Origin: Chiloscyllium plagiosum
Lineage: Eukaryota
Reading direction: 5' to 3'
Assembly: GCF_004010195.1 (NCBI RefSeq)
Contig: NC_057719.1
Coordinates: 47,988,130-48,036,778 of the forward strand
Length of the DNA: 48,649 nt
Part shown: one piece after another, positions 1 through 47,455 of the stretch
Numbering within the stretch: position 1 is the stretch's first letter
Layout of the letters: every line of letters begins with the position of its first letter
The notes under the pieces: generated by a model
Databases searched by the model: none
Told to the model about the DNA's origin: nothing
What the model saw: only the letters and a program-made list of their open reading frames with translations
Program-made: the position numbers and the translations under genes

Positions 1-240
1 ATCTTCTTCCTGACCTCTCCGCCCCCACCCCAGTCTGACCTATCACCCTCACCTTGACCTCTTTCCACCTATCACATTTCCGACGCCCCTCCCCCTAGTC
101 CCTCCTCCCTACCTTTTATCTTAGCCTGCTGGACACACTTTCCTCATTCCTGAAGAAGGGCTTATGCCTGAAACGTCAATTCTCCTGTTCCCTGGATGCT
201 GCCTGACCTGCTGCGCTTCTCCAGCAACACATTTTCAGCT
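1..240 (+). mobile_element. Penelope-like retroelement 3' terminal (pLTR) fragment interrupting ERV pol
   Basis: Near-identical to the C-rich tail, hammerhead and 'GGATGCTGCCTGACCTGCTGCGCTT..CCAGCAACACATTTTCAGCT' end seen at 2836-3097 and 8301-8670; at 8301-8670 this tail follows GIY-YIG C-terminal coding sequence. Confidence 0.8.
146..181 (+). ncRNA. Minimal type I hammerhead ribozyme motif (PLE-associated)
   Basis: CTGAAGA-AGGGC TTAT GCCT-GAAA-CGTC: CUGANGA core, stem II hairpin, GAAA, then GUC. Confidence 0.6.
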
Positions 241-570
241 CCTCCTGTTCTGGCCCCAGGTTACAGGTTCCAAGATGGGCTTGCCTCCTTTAATTAGTCT
301 CTGGATCAGTTCAGCTAATTTTGCGAATTTGGGTATAAAGCTCTGACTGTAGTTGAATAGCCCTGTGACCTTCTGACTTCCCTGACAGCGGCAGGTCGTG
401 GCATCTGTTGGATTGCCTTCTTACGGTCATTGGGCATTTCTTTGAGTCCCTGGAATATAAGGTGTCCCAGATATAACACTTGTGTTTTGCCAATCTGTGC
501 CTTTGTGGGGCTGACTTTTAACCCTGCAGTTACCAATTTCTGCAATACTAGCCCTAAAGCTTCCTAGTGC
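241..570 (-). pseudogene. pol: Retroviral-type reverse transcriptase C-terminal/thumb fragment
   Basis: H*EALGLVLQKLVTAGLKVSPTKAQIGKTQVLYLGHLI...RKKAIQQMPRPAAVREVR, then frameshifted FNYSQSFIPKFAKLAELIQRLIKGG..EPVTWG; these are post-YxDD RT motifs. Confidence 0.85.
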
Positions 571-661
571 CCACTAGCATCTCACATTCCCTCTCTCCTA
601 TTACTGCAGGCACGTAAATTCTCCCCTCTCCCTTACCCTCGCGAATGGGGGCAGTTGATTG
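565..661 (-). pseudogene. pro: Retroviral aspartic protease N-terminal stub
   Basis: QSTAPIREGKGEGRIYVPAVIGERECEMLVGTR; MLVGTR lies at the expected position of the LVDTG active site and is fused directly to RT sequence. Confidence 0.6.
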
Positions 662-1960
662 TCAGCTCTGCTGACCTCGGGACTCCACAATTCCGCAGTA
701 TTCTGGGTGGTGTTTGGGGGTGCCCCATGCTTTTCCCAGCACACTACTTCTATGTGTCTTGTTCCTTTGCAGTGGCTGCAGTATTTTACATTGATCCCTG
801 ATCTATCTCCTGCTCATGGGACCCTACACTCTCTAGCAAAGTTGTGGCAGGATCGTTTTATTCTATTCTTGCCTTCATTCCAGGAGGCTGCTTTGTCAGG
901 TCTTACCCTTGCTGCAGGAGCTTCTGCATCCTGCACCTTGCTAGCCCACTCGACAAGGTCATCATAATCCTGGGACATTATTACTCACATTTTCAAGATG
1001 GCTTGGTGGCCGCTAGAGAGCCCACCTTTGAAAGCTTGGATGAATGCCTGGTTCCCCCTGATCTGGGTTTGCTTGACCTGAGCATTCTTGATAGATCCTC
1101 CTAAGTAGTCATTCCCCATATTCAGAGGCTCCTTCCCCTGTTAGTTGTTTAGTGTTTGTGATCTTGCTCCATTTGTGGGAGCATTTTCTAGCACCCTCTG
1201 GATTTCTTCTTTAAAGTTGGTGAAGGGGGGCAGCTGGGCATCTATCTCTGTTGTGAGGGCAATGGCATGCGCCCACCGCCCTCCCCTAAAGTCTCGAGCT
1301 GCTGTGGCATCGGGTCTGCCAGCTACCTGTCTCCACTTGTCTGCTGGGAAAGCTGCCTGGACCAGCTGCTATATGTCCCTCAGGTGTAGTTGGTGCCCTA
1401 CCCATGCACTATCTAGCTCTTCCCAGAAGCTGGTGTTTACGCTCTGGGGCTGTAATTTGCCCAGGGAGGCCATAATCTACTGCCTCTCCCCTGGAGTGAA
1501 GGGTTTATAATTCGCTTTAGGTTGCGACTCTGTGCCTCCTCTGGTAACAGGTGCTAAGGTATACTCCTGCATGGTTTGTCCAACAGAGGGAGCAGTTGGC
1601 TCCTGCTGGACAGTTTTGTAGGAGGGGAGACAGTCAGTTTCTCTCTCCACTCGCATTTTTTCCAAGGTGAATTCTAAATTTTTTATTCCGACCTCCAGTT
1701 CTCCAACTTGCTCCTGGTCCTTTCTCCACCTACTCGTGTAGGCACTCATTCAATTCGGCCTGCTAATTGGTGTACTAACATTACCCCTATCGTTTTAGTT
1801 TTATTCCGTTTCTGCTTATCTATCCACTGTCTCTGTTGTGCTAATGTCTGGGATGGATCCCATCCACTCTTCTTCATTTGCTCTGTCAGCCCTGTCTATC
1901 TGTCTTGTACTTCTCAATAAGGGAACCAGCAGTATCCCTCTGAGAGCTTTGATCTGCCAT
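601..1960 (-). pseudogene. gag: Gag polyprotein remnant (stops and frameshifts)
   Basis: ATG at 1960 (MADQSSQ...), coiled-coil-like stretch, LPSY and PTAP (1588-1599) late-domain-like motifs, capsid-start-like 'LAPVTRGG..YKPFTPGERQ', intact knuckle CSHCKGTRHIEVVC (~739-780) and a deleted first knuckle CHN..FAREC. Confidence 0.75.
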
Positions 1961-2064
1961 TTAGCAGGTTGTGTACTCACGGATACCAGGAACAGTAAAG
2001 TGTTCCTAATCCTCTGGGATTTCTCTACCCCCTGGCTGTACGGCTGTAGCAGCCTCCTAGCAAG

Positions 2065-2294
2065 GTGTGCTCTCCACCATTGGGACTTCTCTATCCTCCC
2101 GGCCACCACTACTAGTCGGTACCTACCGGTCGGTTGGAATGCCGGTTCAATAGAGTGTGCTATCTACCAGTGGGACTCTATACCCTTCCGGCCACCTCTA
2201 CTGACCCAATGCCTCCTGACAGGCCCAGAAATCTACCTCTAGCCCAGTGTGCTCTCTACCAATGGGACTCTTTACCGTCTCGGCCACCGCCACT
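2065..2294 (-). repeat. Three ~48-bp direct repeats separated by unique ~42-bp spacers in the ERV leader
   Basis: GTGTGCT(C/A)TC(C/T)ACCA.TGGGACT...CGGCCACC.C.ACT starting at 2065, 2155 and 2247. Confidence 0.85.
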
Positions 2295-2453
2295 ATTCAA
2301 GCTCTGTTGTTCTACTATGGGCTGACAGGGTATCATGGTTACTCATAGTGTCCACGCTCCCCACCTTGGTTACATGTGTTCCACTGAGGTTTGGCTTTTG
2401 GTCAGAATTGAAAAATGTGTTGCTGGAAAAGCGCAGCATCCAAGGAGCAGGAG

Positions 2454-2489
2454 AATCGACATTTCGGGCATAAGCCCTTCTTCAGGAAT
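2454..2489 (-). ncRNA. Minimal hammerhead ribozyme motif
   Basis: Reverse complement reads CTGAAGA-AGGGC TTAT GCCC-GAAA-TGTC-GATT. Confidence 0.6.
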
Positions 2490-2968
2490 GAGGAAGGTGT
2501 GCCAAGCAGGCTAAGATAAAAGATAGTGAGGAGGGACTTGGGGGAGGGGTGTTGGGAATACAATAGGTGGAAGGAGGTTAAGGTGAGGGTGATAGGCCGG
2601 AGAGGGGGTGGGGGCGGAGAGGTCGGGAAGAAGATTGCAGGTCAAGAAAGTGGTGCTGAGTCCGAGGGTTGGGACTGAGGTAAGGTGGGGGGAGGGGAAA
2701 TGAGGAAGCTGGAGCAATCTGCATTCATCCCTTGTGGTTGGAGAGTTCCTAGGCAGAAGATGAGGCGCTCTTCCTCCAGGCGTCGTGTTGCCATGGTCTG
2801 GCGATGGAGGAGGCCAAGGACCTGCATGTCCTTGGACCTCTCCGCCCCCACCCCCTCTCCGGCCTATCACCCTCACATTAATCTCCTTACACCTATCGTA
2901 TCCCAACGCCCCTCACCCAAGTCCCTCCTCCCTACCTTTTATCTTAGGCTGCTTGGCACACCTTCCTC

Positions 2969-3004
2969 ATTCCTGAAGAAGGGCTTATGCACGAAACGTC
3001 AATT
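2969..3004 (+). ncRNA. Minimal hammerhead ribozyme motif
   Basis: CTGAAGA-AGGGC TTAT GCAC-GAAA-CGTC, with one stem II mismatch. Confidence 0.5.
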
Positions 3005-3582
3005 CTCCTATTCCTTGGATGCTGCCTGACCTGCTGCGCTTTTCCAGCAACCCATTTTTCAGCTCTGATCTCCAGCATCTGCAGTCCTCACTTTCTCCTT
3101 TTGGTCAGAGTGGTCAGCTCCAAATCCTCACCACACTGGAAGTTACAAGTACAGACAGCACCCAACTTTAGAGTTCTGCCCCTACAGAGTCCAATGTTAC
3201 CTGACTTTGCCTCTGGTGCTTCACAGCTCCGAGTGCACTTGGCAGCTCAATTCCCACTTCAAATCCCAACCTTTGTGTGTGGGGGGGCTACCTCTCTTAA
3301 CAACCGGTTTCGGGCAGGGCTTTTGAGACAGGCACTACCTTGTCCTCTGGCTGTTTCAGCACAAGCAGCAGGTTCTTACAGCAGTTAATACAGTCACACA
3401 CTTATTCTCCACAGACATGCATTTAAAAACATTTAACTCAGTACTGTAGCAAATTAGAGATTACAATAGCTATAGCTTTTAAACTGTCCTTAGCCTGGTC
3501 TGACTTTTCCCGTTTGCAGGTACAAAGTGGTTTTTACCCTGGCTCCCCGATTGTGGCCATCGACCAGGGCACCAGTAATAAG

Positions 3583-3601
3583 AACCCTGCTTGCAGTGCC
3601 A
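3583..3601 (-). promoter_or_regulatory. Primer-binding site, tRNA-Ser-like
   Basis: TGGCACTGCAAGCAGGGTT begins 2 nt after the LTR end (...TATAACA); it resembles the complement of a vertebrate tRNA-Ser(TGA) 3' end (TGGCGCAGCGAGCAGGGTT), and two of three differences fit CpG decay. Confidence 0.7.
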
Positions 3602-3603
3602 AT

Positions 3604-4323
3604 TGTTATAGGGAAAAACACCAGTCTCGGAGTCAGAATCGGGGTTCAATGACAGAGTTTATTGCACAAAGAAATACTGGAGCTCTGGGGAGAGAAAGAT
3701 ACCAACAGCACAGTGGTCAGCTGTGAGTCTTCTCTCGACCTGGAGCACATGTCAAGAAACATTTATACATCTTGTGATACAATAGGCCTGTGATGGGAAT
3801 ATTGTCTTTGTAACATGGTTTGTTTATGGCAATCATTGCAGAATTGTTGATAGTTTCGATACAGTTTTTGTCAGTTCCAGTGCAGCTTTTGTTAATTTCT
3901 GTGTGGTCATTGTCAGTTTCAGTGTCTGCATGGAAATCCATTGCTGTAGTAATGGGTGCTAATCGCTCTTCCTGAGAAGGACGGTTACTGTAGCCCTGGC
4001 TATTAGCATTTTGTATTGAGGCTGTATCAAGTTGTTAGCATTTCTATAAAAGGTGTTGGCTGGACCCAGATACTTTGGCGGGCAGTGTTTGTTACTCATG
4101 TGTATTCTCTCCCCCACCCGCCTTAAACTAATCAACTGGCTTGTGAGTGCATTGTGCTGGCATTCTGGTGGTCCTAGACAGTGTCTGTATCTGCTTAGCT
4201 GTTTCTCTCCATATTGTGATCTGGCAACCATCTTGTGTGTCAAGTTGGCCATTGGTGGCTCAGTGGCCATCTTGTGTGTCCATGTGCCTAGTGTCACCCT
4301 GTCCCGTGCCATCTCCCTCTTCA
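3604..4323 (-). repeat. 5' LTR of the ERV (~720 bp; outer end approximate)
   Basis: TGAAGAGGG...CCCTATAACA termini; TATA-like GTATAAAT at ~3761-3768; AATAAA at 3658-3663; repeated CAAGATGG motifs in U3; outer end abuts a LINE 3' fragment. Confidence 0.7.
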
Positions 4324-4465
4324 TATGTCCAATCAGATGCCTTTTAAATGTTATAATTGTACTAACCTCCACCACTTTCTCTGGCAGCTCATTCCATACA
4401 CACATCACCCTTTGCGTGAAAAGGTTGCCCATTAGGTTCCTTTTAAATCTTTCCCCCCTCAAATG
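4324..4465 (-). mobile_element. HER1/CR1 LINE 3' fragment
   Basis: GERFKRNLMGNLFTQRVMCVWNELPEKVVE..TFKRHL is the CR1 ORF2 C-terminus. Confidence 0.85.
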
Positions 4466-5879
4466 CAGGAATTTGTTTCCAAGTGGCAAGAATGAAACCT
4501 TTATCATTAATCCTGACCCATTCAGTTGAGTTTCATGGATTCTGTTGTTGTCTGTAGACTGTTACTCAGAGGATTGTATGAGCAGAGAATCTGAATGCAG
4601 ACTGGTACAACCTGTACTGTATTATTTCATTAAAATGAATGATTTTAACATTTACTTAAACTGTGCTATCAATTGTTATAGGTTAACTACCATTTTTGTT
4701 TCAATTTTTACTGATATTTTTGGTAGTCAGCCCCAATCCTGTTTTTCACATAGGCCCCATTATTTCAATTGCATGATTCTCTATAACACGAGATTGCATG
4801 AGAATGTAATTGCGTTTTAACAGAACAGACTGGAGTGCGCCTGTTTTTTCAGTGGCTATTACTGAAATAATGATTCCTGAATTTATAGCGGTCCATTAGT
4901 AGCCTAAAGACACAGGCAATCTATTGAGTATAATTGTACTTCAGTTTCACTCAGATGCCTTCAGCCAACTGTGGACACAGATTGGGATAAGCAACTCTTA
5001 TGTACCATGTCTTAGAGCCATCAAAAAGTCCTTTAGTCTTCTAATATATTAATATTTGCCATATACGCTACTTTGATATGTTACAGAAGTGTGAGACCTT
5101 CATTATATAGATTTTAATTGAATGAATGTGCCGACTTTGACAAGATATTTGTGTATACATATTAGTGGAATTGGATGGCATACATGTCAAAATATCAAAG
5201 GACCTAGTTCTCTTTTCGGAGATCTTTTGTCTTGTAGAAGCGGTTGTGTTTGGATCTAGAAAATGTATTTAATGGTTTTTTTGCAAAGGTACTTAAACAG
5301 GACCTTAAGGAACAAAGGCGTTGTGATTTATCAAGGGGGCTGGGTTTGTAAAATTTGTTCAGTAATGTATTATATTCTCATGCAGCTTATTTAGTTATCT
5401 TACAGAATCCAAGATGTAATTTACCAAGGTTTCCCTGAAATTTATCAGAGTTTTTAAAAAAACATCTTTTGCTAGTGCATCTATGGAAACCAGAGTGGGA
5501 AGAATGCAAAACACCAAACAGTTTAAAAAGCTAAGGAGGGGTTAGGCAACAAGCCAGTTTTTATGATTGAGAGTTTGATTTTCTTTTACATAAGGGCGTT
5601 GCTTTTTTGTAGATGTGGGCAGTGGAATTTTTTGAATGTCAATAGAGAACAAGGCAAATAATGTTGCCAAAGTTCACGAGTACCATTATTACAATATTGT
5701 TTTAAATAAATACTTTAAATGGTACAACAAAATATTGTATTTATGTAGCACCTTTATTCCAGTAAGATGGCCTCAGGTGCCACTCAGCTACAGAGGATAA
5801 ATTAGAACAGATAAGAAAAGCTTGTTCGAAAAGGTAGGTTTTAAAGAGTTTATTAAATCATGAATAAAATGTGGTTGTC

Positions 5880-8300: not shown

Positions 8301-8670
8301 CTTCCGCCTAGGAACCCTCCAACCACAAGGGATGAACTCAGATTTCTCCAGTTTCCTCATTTCCCCCCCTCCCCTCACCTTGTCTCAGTCCCAACCCTTG
8401 AACTCAGCACCACCTTCCTAACCTGCAATCTTCTTCCTGACCTCTCCGCCCCCACCCCCACTCCGGCCTATCACCCTCACCTTAACCTCCTTCCACCTAT
8501 TGCATTTCCAACGCCCCCTCCCCCCAAGTCCCTCCTCCCTACCTTTTATCTTAGCCTGCTTGGCACACTTTCCTCATTCCTGAAGAAGGGCTCATGCCCG
8601 AAATGTCAATTCTCCTGCTCCTTGGATGCTGCCTCATCTGCTGCGCTTTTCCAGCAACACATTTTCAGCT
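8301..8670 (+). mobile_element. Penelope-like 3' fragment (GIY-YIG tail FRLGTLQPQGMNSDF, pLTR, hammerhead at ~8576-8611)
   Basis: Homologous to 2407-2835; core CTGAAGA-AGGGC TCAT GCCC-GAAA-TGTC. Confidence 0.85.
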
Positions 8671-11056: not shown

Positions 11057-11261
11057 AAAAACCTATCACCTCCATCCCCACCCCCATTCACCTATTGTAC
11101 TTTCTCCCCACCCCCAACCCCCCCCTCTCATTTATGTCTCCACTCTGCAGGCACCCCGCCTCTATTCCTGATGAAGGACTTTTGCCCGAAAGGTTGATTT
11201 TCCTGCTCCTCGGATGCTGCCTGACCTGCTGTGCTTTTCCAGCACAACTCTAATCTAGACT
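11057..11261 (+). mobile_element. PLE 3' terminal fragment with degenerate hammerhead (11168-11195)
   Basis: CTGATGA-AGGAC TTTT GCCC-GAAA; 16-bp TSD-like CTAAGAAACATAAGGT (11041) / CTAATAAACATTAGGT (11262). Confidence 0.75.
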
Positions 11262-17599: not shown

Positions 17600-18262
17600 G
17601 TGGAGGTAATATAGAAGGTACAAAATGATTTATTCAAGGGATATTAGAACTGACAGTATATACTAAGCAAAAAAGATTGAACAGTCTGGGATTTTCTTCT
17701 CAAGAAAATGAAAGGTTGAAGAGACCTGATAGTGCTCTTCAAGAGTATGAAAGAGTTTATAGGATACACGTAGAGAATATAATTTCACTTCTTCTGAGCC
17801 TTCAAATATAGATTTTAATTATCAGAAAATCACTAATAAATCCAATTTGGAATTTAGGAGAAATTTATTCACCCAAGTAGTAGTTATAATGTGGAACATA
17901 AGTAGGCTGCAAAAAGATGTTGAAGAGTGTGGTGTTGGAAAAGCACAGCCAGTGAGGCAGCATCCAAGGAGCAGGAGAATCGACGTTTCGAGCATAAGCC
18001 TTTCATCAGGAATTCCTGATGAAGCACTTATGGTCGAAATGCCGATTCTCCTGCTCCTCAGATGCTGCCTGACTAGGTTTGCTTTCCAGCACCACACTCT
18101 TCTACTCTGATATCCCGTATCTGCAGTCCTCACTTTCTCCTACAAAAAGATGTTGATAGGTTCAGTAAGTGGACAAAGATTGGCAAATGGAGTGCAATGT
18201 GTGAACATTTTGGCATAAAAAATGAAAAAAGAACATATTAGTTACATATGAGAGATTTCAAA
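17600..18262 (+). mobile_element. Old CR1 fragments (host of the palindromic PLE insertion)
   Basis: FRRNLFTQVVVIMWN and RLQKDVDRFSKW..WQMECNV CR1 motifs. Confidence 0.65.
17924..18142. mobile_element. Palindromic PLE-derived element with back-to-back hammerheads
   Basis: Arms inverted about CAGGAATTCCTG (centre 18010-18015); hammerhead cores at 17982-18009 (-) and 18016-18043 (+); 14-bp TSD CAAAAAGATGTTGA at 17910-17923 and 18143-18156. Confidence 0.85.
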
Positions 18263-20144: not shown

Positions 20145-20600
20145 AATATTGGGTAACTGTCTGTGTGGATTTTGTATATTCTCTGTGTAGGCAAAAGTGA
20201 GTACTGCAGATGCTGGAGATGAGAGCTAAGAGTGTGGTGCTGGAAAAGCACAGCTGGTCAGGCAACATCCGAGGAGCAAGAAAATCGATGTTTTTCATCC
20301 TGATGAAGGGCTTTTGCCCGAAATGTCAATTTTCCTGCTCCTTGGATGCTGCCTGACCGGCTGTGTTTTTCCAGCACCACACTCTTGGCTCACTACACTC
20401 TTCTCTGTGTGTCTACATGGGCTTTCACTGGGTGCTCTGATTTCCTCCCACAGTCTAAGGATGTGCAGGCTAGGTGGATTAGCCATAGCAAATTCAGAGT
20501 TATGGGTACAGGGTAAAGGTCTGGGTGGGATGTTCTTTGGAGCACTGCCACAGGCTCAATGAGCTGAATGGCGTCTTTCTGCAGTGTAGGTTCTATGAAG
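20145..20600 (+). mobile_element. HE1-type SINE interrupted by a PLE inverted element
   Basis: SINE body split at TTCTCTGTGT. Confidence 0.7.
20189..20400. mobile_element. Inverted PLE-derived element with intact hammerhead core (20300-20327, +)
   Basis: CTGATGA-AGGGC TTTT GCCC-GAAA-TGTC; 10-bp TSD TTCTCTGTGT at 20179-20188 and 20401-20410. Confidence 0.8.
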
Positions 20601-43261: not shown

Positions 43262-44120
43262 ATAGAAGCAGGGAAACAATACACCATTCTGCTTTTTCTC
43301 TGTTGGCTACAGAAAGGTCTGTCTGGACCTCTGACTACAGAATCCGCGAACACAATTGATCTCTTGGAAGCCGACGTACCCCTCATTGCATTAGAGCCAG
43401 TCTCAATACCAGAAACTTGGCTGTTCGTGCTACGTTTTCCTGAGAATCCATCACCTCCTACATGTTCCAGAACAGCATACCTCTTTGAAATGGGTATATC
43501 CACAAAAGACACCTGCACGAGCTGCCTACCTCTCTTACCCTTCCTGGAGTTAGCCCATCTATGTGACTGTATCTGAGACTTTCCCCCCTTCCTATAACTG
43601 CCATCCATCACATACTGTTGCTGTTGCAAATTCCTCATCGCTTTTATCTGTCTCTCCAACTGATCCACTCGATCTGATAAGATTCGCATCCAACAGCATT
43701 TATGGCAGATATAATCCGCAGAAACCCTTAAACTTTCTTTAAACTCCCACATCTGGCAAGAAGTACATATCACTGCAAAGGCCTTTTTTTTTTTTGCTCC
43801 TTCACAATCTACAGACCCAGAAAATAACACCGTCTTATTCCTCTACAAACACTGCCCCAGGTTAAATTAATAGCTATGGCATATATTTTAAGTTTAATCA
43901 AGAGACTCCTCTCCAAAAACAGATAATCAAGAAAGAATCCACTATACTCACTACTGCAGCCTTTCTCTTGGACAGACTTAAAACAACAATGAACTTATCT
44001 GATTCTGTGCTGTGAACTTCGCCCAATAGTTCCTCCAAGATCAGTTGTGAATTTCACTGTTTGTTTGTTAATTTTCCCAGATGCACTCCAGTGTCCAGTA
44101 ATACATGAATTCAAACAACA
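43262..44120 (-). mobile_element. CR1 LINE 5' region: ORF1 (zinc finger, leucine zipper, SGNH esterase start) plus 5' UTR
   Basis: CTSCQMW..YICHKC..LSDRVDQLERQI..IVFADSVVRG..VYCFP is the CR1 ORF1p architecture. Confidence 0.85.
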
Positions 44121-44124
44121 GTTT

Positions 44125-44216
44125 CTCTTTCCTTCCTTCCTTCCTTTTTCTTTCCTTCCTTCCTTTTTCTTTCCTTCCTTCCTTTTTTCTCTCCTTCCTT
44201 CCTTTTTTCTCTCCTT
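44125..44216. repeat. (TTCC)n / pyrimidine low-complexity tract
   Basis: Directly visible; abuts the assembly gap. Confidence 0.9.
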
Positions 44217-44968
44217 NNNNNNNNNNNNNNNNNNNNNNNNNNNNNNNNNNNNNNNNNNNNNNNNNNNNNNNNNNNNNNNNNNNNNNNNNNNNNNNNNNNN
44301 NNNNNNNNNNNNNNNNNNNNNNNNNNNNNNNNNNNNNNNNNNNNNNNNNNNNNNNNNNNNNNNNNNNNNNNNNNNNNNNNNNNNNNNNNNNNNNNNNNNN
44401 NNNNNNNNNNNNNNNNNNNNNNNNNNNNNNNNNNNNNNNNNNNNNNNNNNNNNNNNNNNNNNNNNNNNNNNNNNNNNNNNNNNNNNNNNNNNNNNNNNNN
44501 NNNNNNNNNNNNNNNNNNNNNNNNNNNNNNNNNNNNNNNNNNNNNNNNNNNNNNNNNNNNNNNNNNNNNNNNNNNNNNNNNNNNNNNNNNNNNNNNNNNN
44601 NNNNNNNNNNNNNNNNNNNNNNNNNNNNNNNNNNNNNNNNNNNNNNNNNNNNNNNNNNNNNNNNNNNNNNNNNNNNNNNNNNNNNNNNNNNNNNNNNNNN
44701 NNNNNNNNNNNNNNNNNNNNNNNNNNNNNNNNNNNNNNNNNNNNNNNNNNNNNNNNNNNNNNNNNNNNNNNNNNNNNNNNNNNNNNNNNNNNNNNNNNNN
44801 NNNNNNNNNNNNNNNNNNNNNNNNNNNNNNNNNNNNNNNNNNNNNNNNNNNNNNNNNNNNNNNNNNNNNNNNNNNNNNNNNNNNNNNNNNNNNNNNNNNN
44901 NNNNNNNNNNNNNNNNNNNNNNNNNNNNNNNNNNNNNNNNNNNNNNNNNNNNNNNNNNNNNNNNNNNN
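44217..44968. other. Assembly gap (N)
   Basis: Run of N. Confidence 1.
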
Positions 44969-47455
44969 ACTAATAAATTAAACTGCATTTATTTCAATGC
45001 AAGGGGCCTAACAGGGAAGGCAGATGAACTCAGGGCATGGTTAGGAACATGGGACTGGGATATCATAGCAATTACGGAAACATGGCTCAGGGATGGGTAG
45101 GACTGGCAGCTGAATGTTCCTGGATGCAAGTGCTACAGGAAGGATAGAAAGGGAGGCAAGAGAGGAGGGGGAGTGGCATTTTTGGTAAGGGATAGCATTA
45201 CAGTTGTATTGAGGGAGGATATTCTCAGAAATACATCTGGGGAAGTTATTTGGGTGGAACTGAGAAATAAGAAAGGGATGATTACCTTATTGGGATTGTA
45301 TTAGACCCCCCCCCAATAGTCAGAGGGAAATTGAGAAACAAACTTGTAAGGAGATCTCAGCTATCTGTAAGAATAATAGGGTGGTTATGGTAGGGGATTT
45401 TAACTTTCCAAACATAGACTGGGACTGCCATAATGTTAAAGGTTTAGATGGAGAGGAATTTAAGTGTGTACAAGATAATTTTCTGATTCAGTGTGTGGAT
45501 GTACTCACCAGAGAAGGTGCAAAACGAGACCTACTCTTGGGAATTAATAAGGCAGGGCAGGTGACTGAGGTGTCAGTGGGTGAGCACTTTGGGGCCAACG
45601 ACTGTAATTCTATTCGTTTTAAAATGGTGGTGGAAAAGGATAGACCAGATCTAAAAGTTGAAGTTCTAAATTGGAGAAAGGCCAATTTTGACGGTATTAG
45701 GCAAGAACTTTTGAAAGCTGATTGGAGGCAGATGTTCACAGGTAAATGGACGGCTGGAAAATGGGAAGCCTTCAGAAATGAGATAACAAGAATCCAGAGA
45801 AAGTATATTCCTGTCAGGGTGAAAGGGAAGGCTGGTAGGTATATGGAATGCTGGATGACTAAAGAAATTGAGGGTTTGGTTAAGAAAAGGAAGGAAACAT
45901 ATGTCAGGTATAGACAGGATAAATCGAGTGAATCCTTAGAGTATAAAGGCAGTAGCAGTATACTTAGGAGGGAAATCAGGAGGGCAAAACAGGGACATGA
46001 GATAACTTTGGCAAATAGAATTCAGGAGAATCCAAAGGGGTTTTACAAATATATTAAGGACAAAAGGGTAACTAGGGAGAGAATAGGGCCCCTCAAAGAT
46101 CAGCAAGGCAGTCTTTGCGTGGAGCCACAGAAAATGGGGGAGTTATTAAATGAATATTTTGCATCAGTATTTAATGTGGAAAATGGTGTGGAAGATATAG
46201 ATTATAGGGAAATAGATGGTGACCTCTTGCAAAATGTCCACATTACAGAGGAGGAACTGCTGGATGTCTTGAAACGGTTAAAGGTGGATAAATCCCCAGG
46301 ACCTTATCAGGTGTACCCGAGAACTCTGTGGGAAGCTGGAGAAGTGATTGCTGAGCCTCTTGCTGAGACATTTGTATCATCGATAGTCACAGGTGAGGTG
46401 CNNNNNNNNNNNNNNNNNNNNNNNNNNNNNNNNNNNNNNNNNNNNNNNNNNNNNNNNNNNNNNNNNNNNNNNNNNNNNNNNNNNNNNNNNNNNNNNNNNN
46501 NNNNNNNNNNNNNNNNNNNNNNNNNNNNNNNNNNNNNNNNNNNNNNNNNNNNNNNNNNNNNNNNNNNNNNNNNNNNNNNNNNNNNNNNNNNNNNNNNNNN
46601 NNNNNNNNNNNNNNNNNNNNNNNNNNNNNNNNNNNNNNNNNNNNNNNNNNNNNNNNNNNNNNNNNNNNNNNNNNNNNNNNNNNNNNNNNNNNNNNNNNNN
46701 NNNNNNNNNNNNNNNNNNNNNNNNNNNNNNNNNNNNNNNNNNNNNNNNNNNNNNNNNNNNNNNNNNNNNNNNNNNNNNNNNNNNNNNNNNNNNNNNNNNN
46801 NNNNNNNNNNNNNNNNNNNNNNNNNNNNNNNNNNNNNNNNNNNNNNNNNNNNNNNNNNNNNNNNNNNNNNNNNNNNNNNNNNNNNNNNNNNNNNNNNNNN
46901 NNNNNNNNNNNNNNNNCTTAATGGTAAGGTCCTAGGGAGTGTTGCTGAACAAAGAGACCTTGGAGTGCAGGTTCATAGCTCCTTGAAAGTGGAGTCGCAG
47001 GTAGATAGGATAGTGAAGGCGGCGTTTGGTATGCTTTTCTTTATTGGTCAGAGTATGGAGTACAGGAGTTGGGAGGTCATGTTGCGGCTATACAGGACAT
47101 TGTTTACGCCACTGTTGGAATATTGCGTGCAATTCTGGTTTCCTTCGTATTGGAAAGATGTTGTGAAACTGGAAAGGGTTCAGAAAAGATTTACAAGGAT
47201 GTTGCCAGGGTTGGAGGATCTGAGCTACAGGGAGAGACTGAACAGGCTGGGGCTGTTTTCCCTTGAGCGTCTGAGGCTGTGGTGTGACCTTGTAGAGGTT
47301 TACAAAATGATGAGGGGCATGGATAGGATAAATAGACAAAGTCTTTTCCCTGGGATGGGGGAATCCAGAACTCGAGGGCACTGGTTTAGGGTGAGAGGGG
47401 AAAGGTATAAAAGAGACCTAAGGGGCAACTTTCATGCAGAGGGTGGTGCGTATAT
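44969..47455 (+). mobile_element. Near full-length HER1/CR1 ORF2 (APE endonuclease + RT), inactivated; RT core hidden in gap 46402-46916
   Basis: CIYFNARGL..DIIAITETWL..GDFNFP..KSPGP..LLEYCVQFW; premature TAG at 45098-45100 and frameshift near 45300. Confidence 0.92.

Follow-up and report, generated by a model that had tools for sequence, protein, structure and literature searches.

A decayed endogenous retrovirus in the shark Chiloscyllium plagiosum and its probable relation to a fish lineage below the gamma- and epsilonretroviruses

Structure of the Locus

The window analysed here, a stretch of 48,649 nucleotides (nt) from Chiloscyllium plagiosum (contig NC_057719.1, positions 47,988,130 to 48,036,778), carries at its left end the 5′ half of an endogenous retrovirus (ERV), which lies on the minus strand and runs from about position 4323 down to 241 (Table 1). 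This is a dead locus, with some 970 nt of pol lost, many stops and frameshifts, and two other repeats inserted, and it can encode no working protein. It is probably best explained as one half of a defunct ERV from a multi-copy family, the intact relatives of which form an unnamed fish lineage on the stem below the gamma- and epsilonretroviruses.

The long terminal repeat (LTR) with its TATA box and polyadenylation signal, the primer-binding site (PBS), the LPSY, PTAP, and YKPFT motifs, the zinc knuckles (one intact and one gapped), and the thumb of reverse transcriptase (RT) were each found on the minus strand where a sequence-only reading of this DNA had placed them. The long leader in that reading is real, but some 690 nt of it belong to a later repeat insertion, flanked by a 12-nt target-site duplication (2395–2406 and 3098–3109), and the true leader is about 930 nt long. 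Short repeats occupy the U3 region of the LTR, whose inner end reads TATAACA at 3604; the outer end is approximate because a fragment at 4316–4461, which occurs in several copies in the window and is presumably derived from a long interspersed nuclear element, adjoins the LTR and blurs its 5′ end.

The PBS likely corresponds to tRNA-Ser, the isoacceptor being unconfirmed. The assignment draws in part on a likeness to the PBS printed for the elephant-shark element CmiERV scaffold 2, with which 11 of the 18 letters agree by eye (PMC4422223). A degenerate PBS pattern run against viral contigs gave 23 matches, with no tRNA gene among them. No accessory open reading frames (cyclin or other) are evident in the leader, only the 5′ half of the element being in the window, and neither a second LTR nor additional pol was found within the 48,649 nt. 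The leader repeats have a parallel in the reference locus L010, of the SSSV (salmon swim bladder sarcoma virus) type, whose long 5′ leader likewise holds three imperfect repeats.

The deletion in pol joins the active-site region of protease to the thumb, with a loss of about 325 codons relative to the related protein P0010. At least three contig pieces of other copies that cover the thumb end at 569, the deletion junction.

Table 1. Features of the element and of the repeats inserted in it (positions are those of the window).
Feature	Position	Strand	Remarks
5′ LTR	3604..4323	−	About 720 nt; outer end approximate (4316–4323); TG...CA ends, TATA, polyadenylation signal
TATA box, TATAAA	3767–3762	−	Sole minus-strand copy in 3090–4400
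Polyadenylation signal, AATAAA	3663–3658	−	Sole minus-strand copy in 3090–4400
Primer-binding site	3601–3584	−	18 nt, 2 nt past the LTR end; position and TGG start seen
5′ leader	1961..3583	−	About 930 nt without the inserted repeat
Leader repeats	2057–2298	−	Three imperfect units of about 90 nt each
Later insertion of a different high-copy repeat	2407–3097	two opposite-orientation pieces	About 690 nt; not provirus
gag	662..1960	−	ATG at 1960; broken by in-frame stops and frameshifts near 1890, 1745, 1171, 1028, and 685
Heptad (coiled-coil-like) stretch	1654..1710	−	Upstream of both late motifs; a crude count finds 6 of 8 a/d positions occupied
LPSY, candidate late motif of the WW-domain type	1629–1618	−	Of 10 close relatives that span this part, 8 have LP[SP]Y
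PTAP, candidate late motif of the Tsg101-binding type	1599–1588	−	Of 10 close relatives that span this part, 5 have it
Capsid domain	931..1521	−	Approximate limits, from the model of intact relative P0007
YKPFT motif	1509–1495	−	
First zinc knuckle	849–823	−	Six residues lost in this copy; whole in 5 of 5 relatives of full length
Second zinc knuckle	780–739	−	Intact CX2CX4HX4C
gag stop TGA, then CAA TCA (CAR YYA)	656..664	−	Stop 664–662; shares its frame with protease; type I readthrough predicted
Protease N-terminal stub	570..661	−	Up to damaged active-site motif; resembles start of P0012/P0013 by eye
RT thumb	563–247	−	One frameshift near 368; 75% and 73% identical to P0009
Second copy of the high-copy repeat	1..240	.	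Cuts pol at 240; remainder of the element, if any, lies beyond the window

Intact Relatives and Retroviral Affinity

With its stops read as X, the window Gag matched three proteins among 2,851 candidates (51, 47, and 40% identity; E 1e-60 to 1e-103), and the window thumb matched one of 44 candidates, P0009. The lineage was proposed in the sequence-only reading as little characterised and of cartilaginous fish, and it does have shark members: the cluster of P0009 includes a protein of Mustelus asterias, and P0020 of Heterodontus francisci, recovered by RT search, carries both a related Gag and a related RT. Two pairs of Gag and Pol relatives, each pair from contigs of the same size and source (7623 and 4520 nt), would likewise be linked. 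Intact Gag and Pol of the lineage are present, unannotated, in public data; no DNA around the relatives was found in viral contigs (Gag alignment) or in metagenome contigs (Gag and Pol).

Pol of P0009 runs in the order RT (with YVDD), tether, RNase H, integrase (IN); its best match among solved structures is the RT of murine leukaemia virus (MLV; 368 bits, against 177 for foamy virus and 156 for Ty3), and Pol of another relative, P0282, ends in a GPY/H-type tail. Because the relatives have this domain order and their predicted capsid best matches that of MLV, the element is assigned to the retroviruses and not to Gypsy, in agreement with the sequence-only reading. Some databases label the relatives "Gypsy retrotransposon integrase-like" and no env is seen, the window holding only the 5′ half, as would also be the case for a Ty3/Gypsy retrotransposon. 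The probability of that identity is nevertheless negligible, given that the tether and separate RNase H of P0009 are unlike the single RNase H that directly follows RT in Metaviridae, that both capsid and RT match MLV first, that Gypsy is split from all retroviral rows, the family included, by a branch of 100/100 in the tree of RT plus tether described below, and that the approximately unbiased (AU) test rejected a placement on the Gypsy side (p = 0.005).

Gag Architecture

Gag begins with M-A-D in the window and in relatives P0004 and P0007, with no Gly2 myristoylation signal. A long helix appears in a low-confidence full-length Gag model of a relative (5 sequences; predicted local distance difference test score, pLDDT, 44.8). 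The candidate late motifs vary among relatives, P0017 and P0020 having neither PTAP nor LP[SP]Y. The capsid of P0007 was modelled from 28 sequences with a pLDDT of 90.5, and the best structural match of this model is the MLV capsid (Z 11.3, root-mean-square deviation 4.3, 194 aligned; Foldseek E 8e-5), which suggests an MLV-like fold. Searched by sequence against Pfam and PDB, the broken window Gag gave nothing of use; with the Gag of an intact relative, Pfam recognised the knuckle alone.

A side observation from the structural search is that the top BFVD match of the capsid model is V5NX06, a Chelonid alphaherpesvirus 5 entry that bears the label ICP4c (196 columns, E 1.1e-5); the match is either due to chance, or the entry is mislabelled, or this record of a turtle herpesvirus contains a domain like retroviral Gag.

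Two knuckles were counted in 14 of 32 Gag-like proteins, three in one, one in six, and none in 11, most of which are fragments; each of the six close relatives of full length carries two. Translated in all six frames, the whole window holds one CCHC and two P[TS]AP motifs in 97,294 positions, a rarity that, like the protein matches of gag and the thumb, speaks against their occurrence here by chance. An eel element (P0021/P0166, from a 16,982-nt contig of the European Nucleotide Archive; its cluster names Anguilla anguilla) combines a two-knuckle Gag with a Pol on the class I stem, which supports the view that the two-knuckle form is the older one there. As a lineage marker, the use to which the sequence-only reading had put it, PTAP fails: P(T/S)AP occurs in 11 of 13 gamma-type and in all 13 foamy loci, and PTAP itself in just half of the close relatives (Table 1). 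The companion statement that gamma- and epsilonretroviral Gag has one knuckle stands for the references, those of the gamma group, walleye dermal sarcoma virus (WDSV), and SSSV each having one, but not as a rule, as two knuckles are reported in epsilon elements and class I elements of the HERV-H group, for which repeated loss has been argued (PMC1224870). Because both PTAP and two knuckles occur in other groups, neither is accepted as a marker, and it is the tree that marks the lineage.

Gag Stop and Readthrough Context

The window Gag ends in GQQS before the stop, the counterpart of the C-terminal GQQD of P0004 and P0007. gag and pro share one frame with one stop between them in 13 of 13 references, class I and SnRV (snakehead retrovirus) alike. 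In the window, 15 of the 5,074 stop triplets are followed by a CARYYA context; in the 13 references no gag stop is. A single fold of the 94 nt that come next to the gag stop gave −19.5 kcal/mol, calculated without a shuffle control, and no structure is claimed. CARYYA is used by the plant LTR element SIRE1 for its env-like gene. The type I motif UAG-CAR-YYA also functions on UGA (PMC3542737) and works in mammalian cells without downstream structure (PMC13517186). The accessible text of these two papers lists the type I signal for tobamo-, pomo-, and benyviruses and Providence virus and for no retrovirus, the listed retroviral contexts being UAG-G (gamma), UAG-R (epsilon), UGAAGA (SSSV), UGACGA (the zebrafish element ZFERV), UGAAGU (a frog ERV), and UAGGGC (SnRV). 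Judged from the sequence context, Gag-Pol of the ancestor was likely made by TGA readthrough aided by CAA TCA.

Phylogenetic Analysis

Reference loci (gamma-type, foamy, L028, L010, and L029–L031) were drawn from viral contigs. L028 is SnRV, its RT being equal to the SnRV row printed in PMC7947760 and its stop context matching PMC13517186; L010 is SSSV, its stop context being equal to that given in PMC13517186; and L029–L031, named from the printed WDSV row and from genome sizes, are of the type of WDSV and walleye epidermal hyperplasia virus (WEHV). Four trees were built: full Pol, with 22 hand-picked rows and 964 columns (P0273, P0212, P0225, and the foamy and Gypsy rows left out); RT plus tether, with 29 hand-picked rows and a Gypsy root (the long branches P0273 and P0212 left out); a quick RT-only tree of 54 hand-picked rows; and a FastTree RT tree, which kept 128 of 148 sequences (RT coverage of at least 240 residues).

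On full Pol the family is supported at 100/99, and the family with two fish rows at 100/97; a branch of 100/99 sets the family, the class I crown, and the eel and carp rows together against SnRV and the amphibian rows, and the crown of gamma, epsilon, and SSSV excludes the family at 100/100. With RT plus tether, the family, a Pimephales row, and one further row form a clade (97/96) whose sister group comprises the class I crown together with the eel and carp rows (92/98); SnRV falls outside. An RT phylogeny, the check proposed in the sequence-only reading, puts the family on the retroviral side of Gypsy. The thumb of the window itself groups with P0010/P0012 (Shimodaira–Hasegawa-like approximate likelihood-ratio test, 99).

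Membership of three known retroviral groups was rejected. The family is not foamy (Spumaretrovirinae), having knuckles, pro in the gag frame, and an RT outside the foamy clade; it is not epsilonretroviral, a clade with the epsilon rows being rejected by the AU test (p = 1.6e-46); and it does not belong to Gammaretrovirus, given its M-A-D start, two knuckles, TGA-CAA context, and Pol outside the gamma clade in the RT-plus-tether and full-Pol trees.

A relation to SnRV, which the sequence-only reading had raised, is borne out as far as the RT score and shared Gag traits go. When RTs are compared, SnRV scores 245 bits and no gamma, epsilon, or foamy reference locus more than 209; SnRV Gag likewise starts with a coiled-coil region, lacks Gly2, and matches the capsid profile over its whole length; and the second knuckle and tail of P0020 look by eye like the single knuckle of SnRV. 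The element could then be an ordinary SnRV-like shark ERV (class III, clade Huo) whose pull towards class I is an artefact of long branches or domain swapping; among chondrichthyan ERVs class III is the most numerous, with 2,843 RT loci versus 2,018 of class I in six genomes (PMC11089739), and classifiers of the BLAST type may well file the family as SnRV-like. This account is unlikely, however: besides being split off on full Pol, SnRV is rejected there as sister (AU p = 0.014; p = 0.083, not rejected, on RT plus tether), it has one knuckle where the family has two, a TAG-GGC stop, and no P(T/S)AP, the capsid profile finds its best reference match in gamma-type Gag (49 bits) with SnRV behind (35 bits), and the SnRV-like CmiERV scaffold 2 has one knuckle and by eye a different Gag (PMC4422223).

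The lokiretrovirus affinity raised alongside it did not survive. Lokiretroviruses are set apart by an RT that is sister to those of all other retroviruses and by an Env related to fusion proteins of Mononegavirales. The N-terminus of Loki Gag is a coiled coil, its capsid resembles that of MLV, and Loki Pol includes a tether and RNase H (PMC12067270, PMC7947760); yet by eye each of the five Loki RT rows compared reads PFG in place of the family's LPQG, without the other motifs of retrovirus type, lokiretroviruses were not found in three chondrichthyan genomes (PMC7947760), and the Gag of Bik-1 is described with a glycine-rich patch instead of knuckles, so that a lokiretrovirus is highly improbable here.

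A possibility that is less favoured but deserves some weight is that the family is already in print within a fish group of epsilon-like or gamma/epsilon-like character (clade Mu, or the Pol-LE/Pol-LGE groups named by Chen et al.). On full Pol the family lies with class I, fish are among the basal members of clade Mu (PMC6001957), and Pol-LE.1, LE.2, LG.1, and LGE.1 have been named from fish and amphibians, including six cartilaginous fish (bioRxiv 10.1101/2021.11.23.469661). The published Pol sets of clade Mu and of the Pol-LE/LG/LGE groups are not among the tree rows. A clade with the WDSV/WEHV-type rows is strongly rejected, as given above, and the epsilon-like CmiERV scaffold 324 has a Gly2 Gag and by eye one knuckle, unlike the family (PMC4422223). 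This alternative shares its mechanism with the explanation preferred here and differs from it in naming only. A literature search found no description of the family, although two broad surveys may contain it (PMC6001957; bioRxiv 10.1101/2021.11.23.469661).

Several points weigh against the explanation preferred here and its stem position on the side of class I, taken in the wide sense of clades Jin and Mu. In the RT-only tree the family, the foamy rows, and the class I rows share an open fork, the FastTree RT tree groups it with other fish rows apart from class I, and on RT plus tether a clade with SnRV has an AU p of 0.083; RT alone is less decisive on placement than full Pol. SnRV and SSSV are long branches, the trees contain no labelled ERV-L/HERV-S, class II, or lokiretrovirus rows, the groups for the AU test were named after the first trees had been seen, and RNase H and IN may have separate histories (PMC8922424). 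The window supplies only about 100 residues of RT, and its placement rests on the relatives; the stop context is that of a single decayed copy and was spotted post hoc; the PBS is likely tRNA-Ser but its isoacceptor is unconfirmed; and because no env is seen in the 5′ half, an infectious ancestor is inferred only.

Copy Number and Transcripts

Assembled contigs of two runs (X1 and X9) were aligned to the window and summed depth was read per bin. In X1 the depth was about 190–440 over the internal region versus about 2,000–5,300 over 3612–4239, which points to many more LTRs than internal copies, and in both contig sets depth jumped roughly tenfold between bins 3455–3611 and 3612–3768, so that the inner boundary of the LTR is supported independently. 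Among the matches listed, other copies differ from the window by roughly 5–15%.

Poly(A) single-cell RNA run X21, of which about 2 in 100 reads were examined, had zero depth over 315–1727 and some over the 3′ part of the LTR. In this one sample the reads on 3612–3925 (bin 3612–3768 included) were one-sided, 30.5 versus 1.6 by first-mate strand, and 93% of placed reads ran on unlike the window; no conclusion on expression is drawn. Such a pile-up is as expected if LTRs of the family elsewhere supply transcript ends. A second RNA run gave no reads on the element.

Other Repeats in the Window

The high-copy repeat that cuts pol also occurs at 8301–8670, 11062–11258, 17920–18141, and 20194–20390, often as inverted pairs. 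One end of it holds CTGA(A/T)GA...GAAAC, which we take to be the minimal hammerhead-like end of Penelope-like elements; over 1–4700 Rfam gave no match at gathering score, and Tandem Repeats Finder found no tandem array over 1–5000. GC content is very low at about 44001–45000 (9%) and 46001–47000 (21%), probably reflecting simple repeats.

Discussion

LTR-driven genomic RNA, tRNA-primed reverse transcription, and integration are established for retroviruses. By analogy, the LTR of the ancestor would have driven a genomic RNA that was primed by a host tRNA, likely Ser, reverse transcribed, and integrated. Its Gag may have assembled an MLV-like capsid and packaged RNA through the two knuckles; LPxY, with PTAP in some members, lies just before capsid (CA), and these candidate motifs likely recruited the endosomal sorting complexes required for transport. 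Gag without Gly2 would have reached the membrane by another route or with an Env partner, and Gag-Pol likely arose by the readthrough described above. The copy in the window then lost its stretch of pol, gained stops and frameshifts, and took up the two other repeats.

More tentatively, the lineage, with sharks and teleost relatives, could be a stem class I group that kept an older Gag plan (a coiled-coil, unmyristoylated N-terminus and two knuckles) together with UGA/CAR-YYA readthrough and no gammaretroviral pseudoknot. If so, the single-knuckle, myristoylated, and pseudoknot-driven Gag of gamma- and epsilonretroviruses would be derived, and if the placement holds it helps to order the loss of a knuckle, the gain of myristoylation, and the change of readthrough signal in class I history; a CAR-YYA context that proved conserved and active would be a new type of readthrough for vertebrate retroviruses. 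The locus itself is a fossil with no evident function, and ERV loci are known by the thousand in sharks; it is of value because it directs attention to a lineage that lies between SnRV and the crown of gamma and epsilon.

Comparison with Known Retroviruses

SnRV resembles the family in its coiled-coil, unmyristoylated Gag N-terminus, its single frame for gag and pro-pol, its short R-U5, and its RT motifs (40% over 289 residues); it is unlike the family in its PBS, in the 100/99 branch on full Pol, and in the stop context, missing P(T/S)AP, and single knuckle noted above, the last also reported in PMC1224870. Gammaretroviruses (MLV and the reticuloendotheliosis virus type) share with the family the predicted capsid fold, the order RT-tether-RNase H-IN, the in-frame readthrough arrangement, and, ahead of CA, P(T/S)AP together with a motif of PY type, whereas their matrix is Gly2-myristoylated, their Gag has one knuckle, and their readthrough is of type III (TAG-G plus pseudoknot; PMC3542737); the family lies outside their crown. 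Epsilonretroviruses (WDSV, and the WEHV-type loci L029–L031) and SSSV (L010) are alike in fish hosts and in-frame readthrough, and SSSV also in its TGA stop and long leader with repeats. WDSV and SSSV differ in having one knuckle each and stop contexts TAG-GAT and TGA-AGA, respectively, and the WDSV reference Gag has the Gly2 that the family Gag does not.

Three CmiERV lineages, I and II among them, have already been published from elephant shark, a chondrichthyan host like those of the family (PMC4422223). By eye, scaffold 2 resembles the family in its LTR end, in part of its PBS, in leader repeats, in a coiled-coil Gag, and in a TGA near the end of gag; scaffolds 2 and 324, two of the three lineages and the ones compared, are unlike it in having one knuckle and a different Gag and RT. 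XtERV-S, a class III element of Xenopus (PMC8278194), has a tRNA-Ser PBS (presumed for the family), P(S/T)AP, no myristoylation signal, and a TGA between in-frame gag and pol, as the family does, but it has no zinc knuckle, YIDD in RT, a dUTPase in pol, and an ERV-L-type Gag. Outside the retroviruses, the closest counterpart of the predicted readthrough site is the type I signal of the tobacco mosaic virus type, a short signal familiar chiefly from viruses of plants: the six bases after the stop fit CAR YYA, here on TGA.

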